In this document: piece by piece, positions 6,488 through 45,697 of the stretch
Layout of the letters: every line of letters begins with the position of its first letter
Numbering within the stretch: position 1 is the first letter of the stretch
Assembly (NCBI GenBank): GCA_026770705.1
Contig: JANJGN010000011.1
Span: 21,142,001 to 21,206,000 of the forward strand
Direction: 5' to 3'
Origin: Isurus oxyrinchus
Lineage: Eukaryota
DNA: 64,000 bases
Position numbers and translations under genes: made by a program
The notes under the pieces: model-generated
Told to the model about the DNA's origin: nothing
The model's database searches: none
What the model saw: the letters and a program-made list of their open reading frames with translations, nothing else

Positions 6488-7804
6488 CAGGCCCTTAGCT
6501 TCTTCCTCGAACAGAGGCCCGAACAATCCCCATCCACCATTACTCTCCTCCGTCTGGCTGAACTTGTTCTCACGCTGAACAATTTCTCCTTCAACTCCTC
6601 TCACTTCCTCCAAATAAAAGGTGTGGCTATGGGTACCCGCATGGGCTCCAGCTATGCCTGTCTCCTTATGGGGTATGTGGAACATTCCTTGTTCCAGTCC
6701 TACTCCGGCCCCCTTCCACAACTCTTTCTACGGTACATCGATGATTACTTCGGTGCCGCTTCATGCTCTTGTCGGGACTTGGAAAAATTTATTAATTTTG
6801 CTTCCAATCTCCAGCCATCCATCATTTTCACGTGGTCCATCTCTGACACTTCCCTTCCCTTCCTTGACCTCTCTGTCTCAATCTCTGGTGATGGACTATC
6901 CACCAATATCCATTACAAACCCACCGACTCCCACAGCTACCTCGACTACAGCTCCTTACACCCCGCTTCCTGTAAGGACTCCATCCCATTCTCTCAGTTC
7001 CTTCGCCTCCGTCGCATCTGTTCTGATGATGCTACCTTCAAAAACAGTTCCTCTGACATGTCCTCCTTCTTCCTTAACCGAGGTTTTCCACCCACGGTCG
7101 TTGACAGGGCCCTCAACCGTGTCCAGCCCATCTCCCGCGCATCTGCCCTCACGCCTTCTCCTCCCTCCCAGAAACATGATAGGGTCCCCCTTGTCCTCAC
7201 TTATCACCCCACCAGCCTCCGCATTCAAAGGATCATCCTCCGCCATTTCCGCCAACTCCAGCATGATACCACCACCAAACACATCTTCCCTTCACCCCCC
7301 TTATCGGCATTCCGTAGGGATCGCTCCCTCCGGGACACCCTGGTCCACTCCTCCATCACCCCCTACTCCTCAATCCCCTCCTATGGCACCACCCCATGCC
7401 CATGCAAAAGATGCAACACCTGCCCCTTCACTTCCTCTCTCCTCACCGTCCAAGGGCCCAAACACTCCTTTCAAGTGAAGCAGCATTTCACTTGCATTTC
7501 CCCCAACTTAGTCTACTGCATTCGTTGCTCCCAATGTGGTCTCCTCTACATTGGAGAGACCAAACGTAAACTGAGCGACCGCTTTGCAGAACACCTGCGG
7601 TCTGTCCGCAAGAATGACCCAAACCTTCCTGTCGCTTGCCATTTTAACACTCCACCCTGCTCTCTTGCCCACATGTCTGTCCTTGGCTTGCTGCATTGTT
7701 CCAGTGAAGCCCAACGCAAACTGGAGGAACAACACCTCATCTTCCGACTAGGCACCTTACAGCCTTCCGGACTGAATATTGAATTCAACAACTTTAGGTC
7801 GTGA
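6488..7804 (+). CDS. PLE ORF C-terminal part: reverse transcriptase plus GIY-YIG endonuclease (5'-truncated, frame open)
   Basis: KGVAMGTRMG, RYIDD, LPFLDL, CKRCNTC, NLVYCIRCSQCGLLYIGETKRKLSDRFAEH; ORF track 6623..7804; frame extends upstream to the inversion junction. Confidence 0.9.
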   Translation, partial: QALSFFLEQRPEQSPSTITLLRLAELVLTLNNFSFNSSHFLQIKGVAMGTRMGSSYACLLMGYVEHSLFQSYSGPLPQLFLRYIDDYFGAASCSCRDLEKFINFASNLQPSIIFTWSISDTSLPFLDLSVSISGDGLSTNIHYKPTDSHSYLDYSSLHPASCKDSIPFSQFLRLRRICSDDATFKNSSSDMSSFFLNRGFPPTVVDRALNRVQPISRASALTPSPPSQKHDRVPLVLTYHPTSLRIQRIILRHFRQLQHDTTTKHIFPSPPLSAFRRDRSLRDTLVHSSITPYSSIPSYGTTPCPCKRCNTCPFTSSLLTVQGPKHSFQVKQHFTCISPNLVYCIRCSQCGLLYIGETKRKLSDRFAEHLRSVRKNDPNLPVACHFNTPPCSLAHMSVLGLLHCSSEAQRKLEEQHLIFRLGTLQPSGLNIEFNNFRS

Positions 7805-38875: not shown

Positions 38876-39544
38876 ATTCACTATTCTCCTATAACGTGCG
38901 TTGTCCTTTCAATTTCACTTTTCCACACACCATTTGTGACAGATTATAGATCAAATTATTATTTTAGCACTGAGTTGCATACAGCAGGCTCCACCTAGCT
39001 TGGCTGTTGTGGTGCATTCAAGCCAATTTAACATAAACATATTTCATCACATTTATTTTCATCTGATGCAGGTGCATTCCTGACCTGTAGTTTAGAAGTA
39101 AAACCATAATCTGTGTGGCTCATTTCCAAGGTTCCTGTTCATATCAGCATCAATTGCAGTTAATAGGATCCAACAATATTTTGATTTTCACTTCTTGATG
39201 GTTTGTTTAAAAAGGAAGGAACTAACATCAAAACATGAAGAATGATTATTCAGTAATTTATGGGCTGAATTCTCCAGTCGGTGAGCAGGGGTGGGACCTG
39301 CTTGCCGTTGCGTAAAGTGACAGGCGGTGACGTCGGGTGGGCAAAGGCCTATTAAGGCCAGTTAAAAACTAATTTAAGCAATTAAATGAGCTGCCAGTCC
39401 AACCTTAAGGTTGATGGACAGGTGAAGAGCCCAGGCGGCCTTCGCATTCTTCGTGAAACCTCATCCACAGGCGGGATGAGGTTTCATGAAGTGTTTTAAA
39501 ATTCAATACTTACCTGGCATCGCATTTCTGCCAGGGAAAGAGCA

Positions 39545-40831
39545 ATGGCTATAACCAGTCGAACTCTTTACCATGGGGTACCCATCACCATCCGAGTCAT
39601 GGTGAAAGGCAGCGAGCAAGGAACAGGAATGGATAGGACCTTCTTCACCAAGAAGATCTTATTCAAGCTGTGTGGTTTTGAGGCTGCGGAGATCTACTAC
39701 CTACAGGATTTCCTCTGCGCTGGATTTTTTGATGTGACTTTCAAGCAAGTGGCAGCTTGTATCAAACTCCTGAAGGTGTTTGAGGAAAAGAAAGACCTGT
39801 CAGAAATGAAGATCCTGACAGCGGAGCCGCTCTTTGCTCTGCCGTTGCATCGAGAACGGGTTGCGACTGTGCACCTTTACAGCCCCTTCGTCCCTGTCGC
39901 TGATGTGCTCACCTTCCTTACCAGGTACTTCGATAAGGTTAGGAGCTGCACCGCGGTTAGAAATGATTTGGGAATCTGGACATGTAAACACCAGCTTAAG
40001 GTAACGCTCAAGACTGACGGTAAGGGAGCCGTCTTCCACCCCCCTTCCAGATTCACTATCGGGGGATGCCGTGGCTACCTTGTCTACGCTGGGCAACCCA
40101 AACTTTGTCGCTCATGCGTCAAGGCTGGTCATGTGGCGGCCAACTGCAGCGCCGTCCTCTGCAAGAACTGCAAACAGGAAGGACACCAGACAAAATACTG
40201 TAGACAGGCTAAGTGCTGCAACCTGTGTGGCGAGGCAAGTCACCTCTACAAGACCTGCCCCAAACGTTGCCGTACTTATGTACAGGCAGCCAAAGCCAAC
40301 GAGGGGGAAGCAGAAGAAATGCCTCGTGTCACTCCAACCACCAAGGCCCCCAGGGAGAACAACGGGACAAAGGAGGACACAGAGAGAGACAAGGTGGAGG
40401 AAAAGATTGGGGCAACAGACAGCCAATCAACAGCACTGCCCCCTGAACCTCCCACTCCTCAGGAGAGCGAATCAACGGAGGAGGAGGAGGCAGCAGTGGG
40501 AAAGCAGCAGGGGGAGTGGCAGCTGGTGAAGAGAGCCAAAAGGAAGAAGGGGCTAAGAAGAAACCAAGCCACTTCCCAGACAAGAGGCAAGAGGCGTCTC
40601 CTATCCGACACGGATAACAAGAGCAGCAGCTATTCGGACGAAGAAGGGCCAGGGCGGCGCCAACAGAAGAAGCGGCAAAACACTAGGGAGTTGGAGGATG
40701 AGACACCCGAGCTCCAGAACATTGGAGACAATGAAGAGACCAGCGCACCCCAACTTTGCCCACAACCCGAAGAGGCCAGTGCACCACAGCCCCAGGAATC
40801 TGGGAACAGTGAGGCGCTCAGCGCACCCTAG
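39545..40831 (+). CDS. Tx1 ORF1 (gag-like, three CCHC zinc knuckles, low-complexity C-terminus)
   Basis: CRSCVKAGHVAANC, CKNCKQEGHQTKYC, CNLCGEASHLYKTC; the final TAG is probably a premature stop within an SAPQ repeat. Confidence 0.85.
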   Translation: MAITSRTLYHGVPITIRVMVKGSEQGTGMDRTFFTKKILFKLCGFEAAEIYYLQDFLCAGFFDVTFKQVAACIKLLKVFEEKKDLSEMKILTAEPLFALPLHRERVATVHLYSPFVPVADVLTFLTRYFDKVRSCTAVRNDLGIWTCKHQLKVTLKTDGKGAVFHPPSRFTIGGCRGYLVYAGQPKLCRSCVKAGHVAANCSAVLCKNCKQEGHQTKYCRQAKCCNLCGEASHLYKTCPKRCRTYVQAAKANEGEAEEMPRVTPTTKAPRENNGTKEDTERDKVEEKIGATDSQSTALPPEPPTPQESESTEEEEAAVGKQQGEWQLVKRAKRKKGLRRNQATSQTRGKRRLLSDTDNKSSSYSDEEGPGRRQQKKRQNTRELEDETPELQNIGDNEETSAPQLCPQPEEASAPQPQESGNSEALSAP

Positions 40832-40908
40832 CTTCGGGAAGCCGGGAGCAGCAACACCTCAAAGCGGGAGAGGATTGGAGAAGCTTCTCCAACAGAGGAC
40901 ATTTCAAA

Positions 40909-41071
40909 GATAAAAACAAAAAAACTGCGGATACAAAAACAGAATTACCTGGAAAAACTCAGCAGGTCTGGCAGCATCGGCAGCATCAACGGTCAGTTTG
41001 GTCGAAGGGTCGAGGACTCGAAACGTCAACTCTTCTTCTCCGCCGATGCTGCCAGACCTGCTGAGTTTTTC
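40909..41071. mobile_element. 163-bp fold-back mini-PLE (tail only) nested in the Tx1
   Basis: 14-bp TSD GAGGACATTTCAAA at 40895-40908 and 41072-41085; arms match the PLE tail (gatgctgccagacctgctgagtttttc). Confidence 0.9.
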
Positions 41072-41270
41072 GAGGACATTTCAAACCCCACTCTCTGCAC
41101 GGACCCCCAGATGCCATCCGAGCAGAACATCTCCAATGGGGAGGTTCAGGACGCTTTCCTCAGCCCATCCAAAGTGAAGGAATTTGAGCACACTATGGGC
41201 ATGAAGGAGCAGACCAAAGGTCTGGAACTCTCAGAGACAACAGGTTTGGTAAGCGACTAACTGCTTTAAA

Positions 41271-44200
41271 ATGGTTGTAAAGATTGTATCCATACATGTG
41301 CTTAGCATTAAATCTACTACGCGATGTGTTGTGACCTAGGATTACCTTTCCTAGGTCAAAGCTGACCTCTTGTTTCTGCAGGAGTGTGTGATACCGCACC
41401 TCAGCTCCTACAGGCAATGGTCATGATGGTGGTCCCATGGGCCATCGATCTGGTTGGGAGGAAACGACTCTCGTTCCTCCGGCCTGGGTATTCTGCTGCA
41501 GGGAGGCAGCTTCACCGTCTCCCAGGTTAAGGAGGTGGTGGGTGGGCGCCTCCTCGTAGCAGACGTAATGTACAAGAATGTTCCACTCCGGTTAATTAAT
41601 GTCTACGCCCTGTCACAAGGGGCTGAGCGGCTGGAGGTTTTTCAGCAGCTCCCACTGCTGCTGGCGACCTCCAGGCCGGTCATTCTGGGCGGTAACTTCA
41701 ACTGCATCATCGATGCGGCTGGACGATCCGGCAGGGCCGACAGAAGATTGGATGCTACGTCCAGATCCCTGATGGAAACAGTAAAGGATGCCAAGCTGCA
41801 TGACGTCTTCAGCAACCCTGCAGACGGAGCGCAGCGTAGATACACCCGGTCGCGGCCTGACGTGTCCGTCTGTTCCGGGATAGATTTCCTGTTTGTGTCC
41901 CGTGCATTCGCAGTCAGATCCACTAACGTCAGGCCGGTGTTCTTCTCTGACCACTGCCTCCTACTGGCTGACTGTCACTTAGAGGAAGACCAAAGGGTTG
42001 GCAGGGGGGCATGGAAGCTAAACGTGCAACTGCTGACCCCAGAGAACATTGAGGAGCTCAAGAGGGATTACAAAGGTTGGAGAACCATGAAACCCCACTT
42101 TGAGTCACTGACACACTGGTGGGAAGCAATCAAGGGAAACATCAAGAGGTTTTTCATCCTCAAAGGCACCCAGAAAGCTAGAAAAGAACAGAGGGAAATG
42201 TCCCGACTCCAGAAAAACATGCAGAATCTGCTCCGGCTGCAGTTGATGTGGGTCGATGTCAAGGAGGAACTCCAAGAGGTGAAGAGCCAGCAAGCCTTGC
42301 TCTTTGCCTCGGAGGCCTCCAAGATCATCTTCCGTTCCAGAGTCTGCTCCGTGGAGCAGGACGAGACATGCTCACGTTTCTTCTTCCAAAAGGTACACAG
42401 AGAGAGCTCTGTGATCAGCAGCCTGAAGGAAGAAGATGGCTCAGTAAAGTCATCACAGTCCGACATTTTGAGGATCAGCAAATCCTTTTATGCCGGATTG
42501 TATGACGTGAAGCCCACAGACAGCACGGCCTCCCAGTCCTTCCTGTCCTCTATCACGGAGGTCTTAGACGACAGTACACGGGAGAGTCTGGACAAAGCGC
42601 TAACTCCTGACGAACTGACTGAGGCCCTTGAGTCCTTCGAGAAGAGTAAAACTCTCGGAAGCAATGGCTTGCCGGCCGAGTTGAATTCGGCTCTGTGGGA
42701 CTGGATCGGCCCGGACCTGCTAGAAGTGTACGAGAGAATGCTCCTGGCCAGCAGTACGTCAGAATCCATGAGGAAAGGCATCATAACCCTCATCTACAAG
42801 CACAAGGAGGAAAGGGAGGACTATAAGATTCTGTCCAAGGTCATCGCCAATCAGGTCAAATCCGCTCTGAAATTGGTGATTCACCCTGACCAGACCTGCA
42901 CTGTGCCAGGCAGGAAAATTTCTGACAGCCTCGCGCTCCTCAGGGATATAATTGCCTATGTACAGGACAGGGGTGTGGATACCTGCCTCATCAGCCTGGA
43001 TCAGGAGAAGGCCTTTGACAGAATATCGCACACCTACATGGTGGATGTGCACTCCAAAATAGGGTTTGGGGAGGGAATTCACAATTGGATCCAACTGCTC
43101 TACACTAACATCAGTAGTGCAGTCTCTATCAATGGGTGGGAATCAGATAGCTTTCCTATTAAATCTGGAGTCAGGCAGGGCTGCCCTCTCTCGCCTGTTC
43201 TTTTCGTGTGTTGCATAGAACCCTTTGCTGAGTCCATCAGGAAGGATCCGGGCATAAGAGGAGTGACGATCCCAGGCATTGGAGGCACTCAGGTCAAAGT
43301 CTCCCTGTACATGGACGATGTCGCCATCTTCTGCTCGGATCCGCTGTCGGTGCACAGACTTATCCACATCTGCGACCAGTTTGAACTGGCCTCGGGAGCC
43401 AAGGTAAATCGTGGGAAGAGCAAGGCCATGTTCTTTGGGAAATGGGCTGACCGATCCTTTGTCACCTTCACCGTGAGGGCTGACGGCCTGAAGGTGCTGG
43501 GGATATGGTTCGGAGGGACCAGGGCACGTGTTAGAAACTGGAAGGAGCGAGTGCCTATGGTGAAAAGGAAACTGGGCATGTGGGAGCAACGCTTCCTCTC
43601 CATTGCGGGTAAGAACCTGGTCATCAGGTGTGAGGCACTCTCGCTGTTGCTGTACGTGGCGCAGGTCTGGCACATTCCACACTCCTGTGTGGTGACGATC
43701 ACCCGAGCCATCTTCTGCTTTATCTGGAGGTCGAAAATGGATCGTGTCCACAGAGACACGATGTACAAGCCTCTAGATAAAGGGAGAAAAAACGTGCCCA
43801 ACGTCGCCCTCATCCTGATGGCCACCTTTGTGTGCGGCTGCATCAAGCGCTGCGTAGACCCTCAGTATGCAAACACCAAGTGCTGAGGTGCTACCTGCTA
43901 CACATGCTGAGGTGTTACCTGTTCCCAGTGTTACGAAGGATGGGTCTGGCCACGCTGCCGCGGAACGCTCCAAGTAGTTGGACCGTGCCGTACCACCTAT
44001 CCCTCGTGGGAAAATTTATGCAGAGAAACACCTTTGACCACAAGTCCATCAGGCAGTGGATGGCACGTAATGTCTTAAAGGTCCTGAGGGAAAGGAGAAG
44101 GTGGATCCTGTGGGATGGTTCCCTGAGCAGACTGACAAAGTCATTTGGCAGAATGCCTCATCGCCAGAACTTTCCAACAAGCACCAAGACATAGCTTGGC

Positions 44201-44651
44201 TGGTGGTGAGAAAGACCCTTCCTGTAAGATCCTTCCTACATGCCAGGAGTCTCACCCCCTCTGCACGTTGCCCTCGAGGTGGCTGTGGTGGGGAAGAGAC
44301 CGTTGTTCACCTCCTTGTAGATTGTGTCTTTGCGAAGAAGGTCTGGAGAGAGATGCAGTGGTTTCTGTCGAGGTTTATCCCGAGCAGTTCTGTGACAGAG
44401 GACTCTGTGCTCTACGGGCTGTTCCCAGGGACACACACCGAGACAGCATCAACTGCAGGTGGAGGATCATCAACTCGGTGAAAGACGCTCTTTGGTCTGC
44501 CCGAAACTTGTTGGTTTTCCAGCGCAAAGAGTTGTCCCCGACCGAGTGTTGCAGACTGGCACATTCCAAGGTCCAGGACTACGTGCTGAGGGACACAGTT
44601 AAGCTTGGGGCAGCCGCCACAAAGGCGCAATGGGGAAGGGTCGCTGCCTAA
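41271..44651 (+). pseudogene. Tx1 ORF2 (APE endonuclease, RT, C-terminal zinc finger), disrupted
   Basis: ATG 41271 is in frame with the 810-aa ORF 41454-43886. Motifs: LLFLQEC, GGNFN, SDH, LDQEKAFDR, GVRQGCPLSP, YMDD, CPRGGC...HLLVDC. Early in-frame stops, the RPISLL motif is missing, and there are frameshifts after 43880. Confidence 0.88.
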
Positions 44652-45565
44652 GACCTTTCTGCCACAGTGCACTGAGGGGCTGGGAACTGTAAAGAGCCCC
44701 TCAGTCTGTACAGATTAAAATGAATGTCTGCCAATGATTGTAATATTCATTGTTTGTACTGATACACCTTGTGATTCATGTTGTAAAAGTTGAACCTGAC
44801 TGTATTTTTGTAATGGTGATATTGAAATGGTTCGAAATGTTTTTGAAGATTTATGAATAAGGTATATTTTTGCAAAAAAAAAGTGTTTTAAAATTCAATA
44901 AAAATTTTTAAAATAATTCTTTGACATGTCCCAGCTCATGTGAGGGGGCATGATTTAAATTACTTTCTTTCAGCTTTTACATATCAAGCTGATCTCCCTG
45001 AGGCACCTCTGTGCCTCAGGGAGATTTCTGCACTCTTTTGCACACATGCAAAAGAGCGCAGGCCCTGACTCCGAGAATCCCCCCACCCCTGCATAGGGAG
45101 CGCTCAGCACTTCCGGGCAAGCATAACACTGGACGGGCCTTAATTGGTCCATGTAAAATGGTGGCGGAGTGCTGATCGGGTTCGCTCGCCCCCACACAAC
45201 CCTGCCTAACAGGGGGAAAACCTTTGTGTATGTTTTTCTTACCTTGAGCCCTTTCTCTACTGTTTTGTATTTGCTGCTATTCTGTCTCACACAGATTTTT
45301 ACTTTCATGGCATTTTGTAAATGGAAAAAAGGAATGAGAAAAGTTAGGTCAATGCAGTATAAATATTTGGAAGAATCAAATGCATCCACAGAGAATATGT
45401 GGCAGCAGATTTAAAAAAAATGAATGTATTTCCACTGGTTCCACGACTTTTTGAATTTAAGACAGCAAATCAAACAACACGCAGGGAAAGTTATTGAGTG
45501 TTGTAGCACAACAAATTGTGCGCTTTTTATAATATAGTTATGCAATTATACATTGACTGTCGCAG

Positions 45566-45697
45566 GTCGAGAGTGGTCTGACTGGTCCAGTGAGCTGAGA
45601 ATTCCCGGTGATGAACTAAAGTGGAAATTTACCAGTGATGGTTCTGTGAATGGTTGGGGATGGCGCTTTACAGTGTACCCTATAATGCCCGCTGCAG
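45566..45697 (+). CDS. HERC2: HERC2 exon, CUB-like segment
   Basis: tcgcag|GT CGA; [44 protein letters not shown]; donor CAG|gtaatg. Confidence 0.96.

Follow-up and report, generated by a model that had tools for sequence, protein, structure and literature searches.

A dead Tx1-type LINE copy in the Isurus oxyrinchus genome appears to represent a family whose insertion sites in snRNA genes are nt 39/40 of U1 and nt 38/39 of U2, whose source copies resided inside U1 genes, and which is likely transcribed from the U1 promoter, so that full-length copies begin at U1 nt 1. We give this reading a probability of about 0.8. The copy lies in a 64,000-nucleotide stretch of DNA, hereafter the window, where it spans 5.4 kb (39506 to 44882) between 20-nt direct repeats (Table 1). 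It is 93% identical to a sister copy and can no longer function: ORF1 is disrupted by an early stop and an insertion, and ORF2 is fragmented. Zinc-knuckle-like Cys/His motifs are visible in the ORF1 translation.

A preliminary description of this DNA had noted that the element begins with a 14-mer matching U1 snRNA, and its coordinates for the 14-mer, the direct repeats (39489-39508 = 44881-44900), their 3-nt overlap with the element, the hairpin arms, and the ATG at 39545 all hold. The 14-mer at 39506-39519 equals nt 1-14 of the genome's own U1 genes and occurs once in the window, both strands counted. The identity of nt 1-14 therefore stands, but the head was taken to be too short: in the family it spans U1 nt 1 to ~58, and only 14 U1 nt are visible here because a further 15 head nt were lost in a deletion private to this copy, which runs between two CA dinucleotides. 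An Rfam scan of the window at the gathering threshold gave no match, the head being too short. The surrounding MITE-like repeat has three paralogues in the window whose halves are contiguous and lack the 14-mer; the motif was thus not part of the empty site, a possibility that the preliminary description had held against its own reading. Just downstream, at 45568-45696 on the + strand, lies an open exon-like frame that we take to resemble HERC2; if it is real, the element is intronic and in sense orientation, and the complement of the head, which looks like a splice donor, falls on the opposite strand. Elsewhere in the window (6629-7804), a 391-aa ORF presumably encodes the end of a Penelope-like RT with a GIY-YIG-type endonuclease.

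Table 1. Parts of the LINE copy and of its host repeat, in window positions
Feature	Position	Strand	Remarks
5' target-site duplication (TSD)	39489..39508	+	20 nt, 100% identical repeat; last 3 nt are microhomology with element start
U1-derived head / 5' UTR	39506..39544	+	U1 nt 1-14, then diverged U1 nt ~28-58, native end before ATG
Hairpin	39513..39535	+	Arms 39513-39519 / 39529-39535; remnant of the family's 11-bp stem
ORF1	39545..40831	+	428 aa up to early stop; two ZCCHC3-type RNA-binding domains
Insertion in ORF1 region	40909..41071		~163 nt, later; absent from sister copy L098; coincides with inverted repeat
ORF2, longest open piece	41568..43886	+	AP-type endonuclease (part) and reverse transcriptase; ORF2 broken
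3' UTR	44650..44882	+	Polyadenylation signal mutated; A-run 44874-44882
3' target-site duplication	44881..44900	+	Direct repeat of 39489-39508
Dispersed MITE-like host repeat	left half 39256..39508, right half 44881-45240		Three window paralogues contiguous

The head is a trait of the family. All genome-wide searches covered the 4.98-Gb assembly; a query with the element's first 261 nt returned 884 candidates, of which 40 were scored and 29 other loci fetched. These 29 sister copies were chosen for the similarity of their bodies; aligned on the ATG, 24 of them show the U1-like head starting somewhere in its first 6 nt, and the remaining five are truncated inside it. No shared sequence was found upstream of the head among the 29 aligned copies, whose upstream flanks are unrelated. 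Aligning the 5' junctions, as the preliminary description had suggested, thus revealed a common start, and copies extending upstream or lacking the motif for reasons other than truncation did not turn up. A 31-nt motif across the head junction has 90 exact matches genome-wide (control, 0). Sister-copy heads consist of U1 nt 1-31, a short internal deletion, and a diverged U1 41-58, and nt 1-31 agree with the U1 gene L034 at 30 of 31 positions. Older subfamilies match U1 exactly over nt 1-32, the remainder of the head being U1 ~41-58 after a ~7-nt deletion, followed by the short native end. The head variant matches one of the 20 intact U1 genes (L034) and not the commonest variant, and the subfamily-specific head changes are absent from all 20. 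Young copies have a well-conserved head, with 1.5% divergence over the first 60 nt.

The family head folds into an 11-bp stem in which U1 nt 8-18 pair with the diverged U1 41-51 arm (z -2.6; equal stability in 4 of 200 shuffles). The change that completes this stem is present in all subfamilies aligned and absent from intact U1 genes, and we speculate that the stem hides the splice-site-reading end of U1. The 7-bp hairpin noted earlier in the window copy (z -2.0) has both arms in place but is only what is left of the complete structure. The family carries a fixed, inherited, U1-derived 5' head on an autonomous element; a U1-derived head is also found on autonomous Tx1 elements of crocodilians.

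Insertion into U1 genes is site-specific. Our U1 inventory comprised 42 Rfam matches, of which 30 were fetched (20 with promoter and 10 retrocopies). Of 28 matches to the U1 promoter, 18 lie at intact genes and 10 at nine other loci, and eight of these nine loci hold this LINE at or near the gene. Junctions from poly(A) to U1 gave 15 exact pattern matches (control, 0), and behind the poly(A), mismatched junctions included, U1 resumes at nt 37-41, mostly at 39/40. Eleven distinct U1 gene loci are hit (one segmentally duplicated event counted once), compared with 20 intact genes and 30 U1 loci fetched; by our own arithmetic, chance would place ~1e-5 of 1024 insertions within a 4-nt window of 30 genes. 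The arrangement anticipated in the preliminary description, a U1 promoter upstream and the U1 remainder behind the poly(A), is found for example at L216, which reads U1 promoter, decayed head, full 5.3-kb element, poly(A), U1 39-164 (98%), and 3' box. Its promoter-head junction is not an assembly artefact because contigs from two separate DNA runs (organism A, organism B) span it. The locus is decayed, however, and ~7 nt are missing from the stretch between its PSE and its head; L216 itself may therefore not have given rise to copies starting at +1. L217-L220 and L227 are arranged alike, except that the element is truncated or the promoter partial, and at L221 a partial promoter adjoins the element, behind which a U1 remainder was not found.

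Tandem insertions give the length of the target duplication. At L245, L248, and L296 the copies are separated by U1 ~40-52 or 40-56, a length that matches the off-target TSDs, which are modally 13-14 nt and measure 9-22 nt in 44 of 59 copies as resolved by one script. The upstream copy of a tandem pair is younger (L366, L245), equal (L296), or older (L248), an order that favours neither recognition of position nor recognition of sequence. No seamless homologous 5' integration was found at the U1 loci; L296 has the full head behind a U1 37-50 duplication and L216 a small deletion. The different U1 loci L217 and L248 share an internally deleted derivative (ORF1, a U1 41-53 piece, and the 3' tail) that is 92% alike across the junction, and this derivative is a non-autonomous form that moved between U1 genes. 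The genome also holds ten promoterless full-length U1 retrocopies (L036, L048, L050-L053, L058-L061), most of which run on for 10-25 nt at the 3' end, the 3' box included, and several of which have short TSDs and 5' microhomology like the copies of this LINE. They are likely pre-U1 RNA mobilised in trans.

Specificity for U1 is weak, with 15 exact junctions against 1024 exact tails genome-wide, counts that come from two different patterns. Among 30 unselected tails, two lie at U1, both from one locus, and we put U1-gene insertions at about 1-2% of copies. Off-target sites have only a weak A before the nick and G/T after it, and no U1-like motif was found in their consensus. The flanks of the copies, compared with one another for a shared target such as Mariner-N4-type transposons, are mostly unrelated. 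Three of 60 full-length copies (L135, L144, L148) lie at almost the same site within a single other repeat, which may be a secondary target and which we take to resemble RTE/Bov-B tails. Head-to-tail tandems are frequent off target as well (L089, L108, L121, L130, L140, L154-L157, L226), several being separated by copies of one TSD, and C2 holds eleven exact tails within 2 Mb (106.7-108.7 Mb) that have no target sequence in common. At L098 a ~260-nt duplication flanks the element, which has no short TSD; this flank was considered as a transduction and rejected as the duplication that it is.

Dispersed copies with transduced 3' sequence tie the sources to U1 genes by the reasoning used for 3' transductions in general (PMC4859970). 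L145 starts with the head and the full element, whose poly(A) is followed by U1 39-164 and then by ~270 nt of flank from a U1 gene; a polyadenylation signal and a second poly(A) close the unit, which lies wholly within a 21-nt duplication with no promoter upstream. L223, which is 5'-truncated, and L247, which belongs to an older subfamily and has a different flank, are built in the same way, each with a TSD and without a promoter upstream; L224 and a unit in L246 are transductions of this build whose TSDs were not recovered. Because the U1 remainder and gene flank lie within the TSDs, the RNAs must have read through from sources inside U1 genes, and on this sequence evidence the transduced flanks come from at least two such source loci. 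The L145-type flank is 93-94% alike among transductions and, among intact genes, is closest to that of L034 (86%), which is also the sole one of 20 to share the head's variant. Every transduced flank that we resolved is U1-gene flank, and no shared non-U1 flank was found among 96 compared. The earlier proposal of a source copy inside a U1 gene is borne out both by these transductions and by the loci with promoter, element, and U1 remainder. A TSD-bounded U1 transduction occurs in only one of 59 full-length tailed copies, and it is therefore by inference that we extend a U1 origin to the others.

The source loci of the transductions were not found in the assembly, and no young intact copy directly behind an intact promoter was found in the genome. 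A motif joining the promoter end to the U1 start has 22 matches: 20 genes, one chance TSD, and one old pseudogene. The lone match of a motif joining the promoter end to the head was considered as a master and rejected, its four promoter-like bases belonging to a TSD. L153 was likewise rejected as a promoter-bearing candidate, being an old U1 pseudogene, and upstream of L249 and L250 no promoter was found over at least 10 kb. L226/L121 was not counted as a transduction, as it has U1 3' flank only and could be read-through from an intact gene.

Several features are consistent with transcription from the U1 promoter. A G precedes the head at -1 in 30 of 47 intact heads, compared with a background of 21% (p 2e-10); the intact U1 genes have C at this position in 20 of 20. 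An extra 5' G is an accepted mark of a capped template (PMC4859970). The -1 G lies inside the TSD in 15 of 18 resolved cases and would be a cap signature only via microhomology, indirectly fitting a cap-derived C that anneals to the target. In two copies that adjoin a promoter with its PSE, private changes are in excess in the first 150 nt, namely at L216 (19/120 vs 24/741, p 6e-7) and at L217 (12/69 vs 38/753, p 4e-4); the PSE-less L220 and three old promoterless dispersed copies have no such 5' excess. At the dead U1 loci L216, L217, L218, and L228, intactness is 62-77% over the 30-50 nt that follow the U1 start and 89-98% over the remainder of the same gene. Pol II snRNA genes are described as having high mutation rates in other vertebrates (bioRxiv 10.64898/2026.10.12.758683). 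This promoter-proximal hypermutation suggests that promoters kept firing into the elements, and we consider transcription of the element from the U1 promoter likely. Contigs of the presumed RNA runs X15, X16, X18, and X19 cover the head and ORF1, and their loose ends are unrelated flanks.

The architecture of the family is that of Tx1 elements, with two ORFs, an AP-type endonuclease, an RT, a C-terminal zinc domain, poly(A), and TSDs. Pfam matches comprise Exo_endo_phos, RVT_1, and zf-RVT (the last from a sister copy) for ORF2 and ZCCHC3-type RNA-binding domains for ORF1. The nearest proteins are newt, frog, and fish LINE ORF2s without family names (best 46-47%), and we take the family to be Tx1 from its architecture and target habit. 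At 5.2 kb, with ORF1 and ORF2, the family element is not a SINEU, which is short and non-coding.

A sister subfamily (~79% identical) carries a head of U2 1-37, with 51 exact matches, joined to the same native end as in the U1-headed family, and a more distant relative (65%) is likewise U2-headed. The poly(A) is joined to U2 nt 39 at five loci. One U2 locus, L366, holds two copies of the U1-headed family in tandem, 90% and 96% identical, the latter being young. Trees were built from 800 nt of ORF1, the cleaned version omitting rows L107, L120, L336, L356, and L328. The 15 U1 rows that bear a head branch as a ladder (100/99). With the promoter-flanked but headless L217 included there are 16 U1-associated rows, whose branch has 92/90 in the cleaned tree, not starred, and 96/91 in the tree with all 32 rows. 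With the outgroup and the distant U2-headed copy, extension from U2 to U1 is the likely direction. Duplicated units that combine U1, U2, and a fragment of a U2-headed Tx1 lie on C29 (0.17-1.13 Mb), and a U2 array with a ~2-kb period on C30 (0.30-0.53 Mb).

We propose the following course of events. The ancestor would have been U2-headed and a user of the Keno site. As the heads and the tree suggest, an early insertion may have placed U1 1-58 before the native 5' end, creating a heritable head that would later have lost ~7 nt and gained the change pairing it into a stem over U1 nt 8-18. Insertion at the target leaves U1 40-164 behind the poly(A) and duplicates U1 ~40-52, a step seen directly at the loci above. 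With the promoter so captured, Pol II would start at U1 +1 and cap the element RNA, and its 3' end would be processed in the manner of an mRNA, by polyadenylation either at the element's own signal or, where transcription reads through beyond the 3' box, at a signal that lies ~270 nt downstream of U1. Most copies, as observed, land off target with 9-22-nt duplications and no promoter and are likely dead ends, and the lineage would persist through the few that land back in a U1 gene.

The head might instead have been captured once and now be an internal promoter, or part of one, in which case dispersed copies would be sources too and insertion into U1 a side habit. The lack of an intact young master among the copies found, the position of about 98% of tails off target, and the conservation of the head in young copies would all fit. 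We nevertheless regard this as unlikely, since the resolved transduced flanks all trace to U1 genes, with no shared non-U1 flank among the 96, since head-bearing copies re-enter U1 genes over several subfamilies, and since, according to Kojima 2015 (PMC4494074), an internal promoter has not been reported for snRNA genes.

Still less probable, in our judgment only a slight chance, is that each insertion acquires a fresh head by template switching or ligation onto U1 snRNA. U6/L1 chimeras are a known case of template switching onto an snRNA, and U1 retrocopies with TSDs occur in this genome. Repeated addition of U1 pieces to the 5' end of SINEU-2 is likewise shown in Kojima 2015 (PMC4494074). 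A fresh head, however, predicts variable junctions and identity to a current snRNA, whereas the junction is fixed, the subfamily-specific changes are missing from 20 of 20 intact U1 genes, and the heads follow the variant of one gene in 20 instead of the commonest; the U1 39-164 and gene flank behind poly(A) and the promoter-flanked insertions would also stay unexplained. A one-off U1-to-LINE template-switch chimera, the alternative named in the preliminary description, is contradicted by the same family-wide fixed head with its inherited derived changes. That the motif is a chance donor-like sequence or a piece of the host repeat could draw on the mere 14 nt that the window copy matches, and is hardly credible: a family-wide head, with 30/31 nt identity and in unrelated flanks, rules it out, and the empty host-repeat paralogues are without the motif.

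Should U1-resident sources driven by the U1 promoter be confirmed, they would account for the origin of the U1 heads on retroelements such as those of crocodiles. All links of such an explanation are present in this genome: insertions flanked by a promoter, transductions traceable to U1, a ladder of subfamily heads, and a U2-headed sister. Because snRNA promoters are external, the transcription of snRNA-headed retroelements was left as an open question in Kojima 2015, which ascribes head addition to template switching (PMC4494074); the question can now be tested directly, crocodilians included. A LINE aimed at U1 would bring an additional class of target, together with a shift from U2 to U1 documented inside a single lineage. 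In this genome the element has knocked out about one in three of the U1 gene loci that were found. Judged from sequence, transcription from an snRNA promoter could disregard the 3' box and give a 5-kb RNA that is polyadenylated and translated. The element is also a candidate for a targeting system, based on an AP endonuclease, that is directed at a conserved multicopy locus. A bolder extension, against which the odds lie somewhat, is that this promoterless vertebrate LINE lineage may be an obligate parasite of snRNA promoters, with position-based targeting (~40 nt past the start, in U1 and U2 alike, although the two differ in sequence at that point), head swaps with the host gene, a stem that hides part of the splice-site-reading end, and forced re-entry as the borrowed promoter mutates each source to death; this might also be the general origin of U1- and U2-headed LINEs and SINEUs.

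Kojima and Jurka 2015 (PMC4640811) name Keno and Utopia (both U2), Dada-U1, and Dada-U6 as the only elements that target snRNA genes, and the tree legend of Kojima 2015 (PMC4494074) also has U5 among targets. We found no U1-gene-targeting LINE in print, within a search that left most subscription papers and Repbase Reports outside, and the accessible parts of PMC3706591, PMC8869645, and PMC5381603 add none. Dada-U1 likewise targets the U1 gene, but it is a DDE DNA transposon with a 6-bp TSD and another U1 site (PMC3706591). Utopia also uses an snRNA gene, and reptile Utopia is weakly specific with TSDs; it differs in its restriction-like endonuclease and its U2 target (PMC4640811).

U1-headed autonomous Tx1 LINEs are already known from crocodilians, where Tx1-2_Crp, Tx1-2B_Crp, and Tx1-4_AMi, as well as SINEU, have U1 heads (Kojima 2015, PMC4494074). 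The claim of an undescribed system made in the preliminary description thus fails for the head itself; what appears to be new is the U1-gene targeting and the evidence of promoter capture. The crocodilian group resembles ours in being an autonomous LINE with a U1 head and a U2-headed sister family, and it clusters with Keno (PMC4494074). Its targets, however, are Mariner-N4 or LTR elements in that account, whereas here promoter-flanked insertions and transductions place the sources in U1 genes.

Keno is a Tx1-clade AP-endonuclease LINE specific for U2 snRNA genes (PMC4640811, PMC4494074), and a U2 flank from nt 39 is given for both Keno and Utopia (PMC4640811). Our family resembles Keno, as judged from published descriptions, in its AP-type endonuclease and RT, in inserting into an snRNA gene with the same orientation, in forming tandems at the target, and in a lineage that leaves U2 from nt 39 behind the poly(A) at five loci. 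It differs in that its main snRNA target is U1 nt 39/40, a different sequence at nearly the same distance from the start, in its weak specificity with >1000 dispersed copies, and in that the host 5' part became a heritable, remodelled head. We do not file it as Keno because it is not U2-specific: the 15 exact junctions at U1 exceed the five U2 loci, and most of the 1024 tails are at neither. With R2 of 28S rDNA it would share the lack of its own promoter, co-transcription with the target gene, and target-derived 5' RNA sequence (R2 as cited in PMC4494074). R2, however, has a Pol I target and a self-cleaving ribozyme, whereas this element would use a Pol II snRNA promoter, with a cap likely added at the host +1 and with copies that lie mostly off target. 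By analogy, then, we read this element as one that works like Keno and R2.
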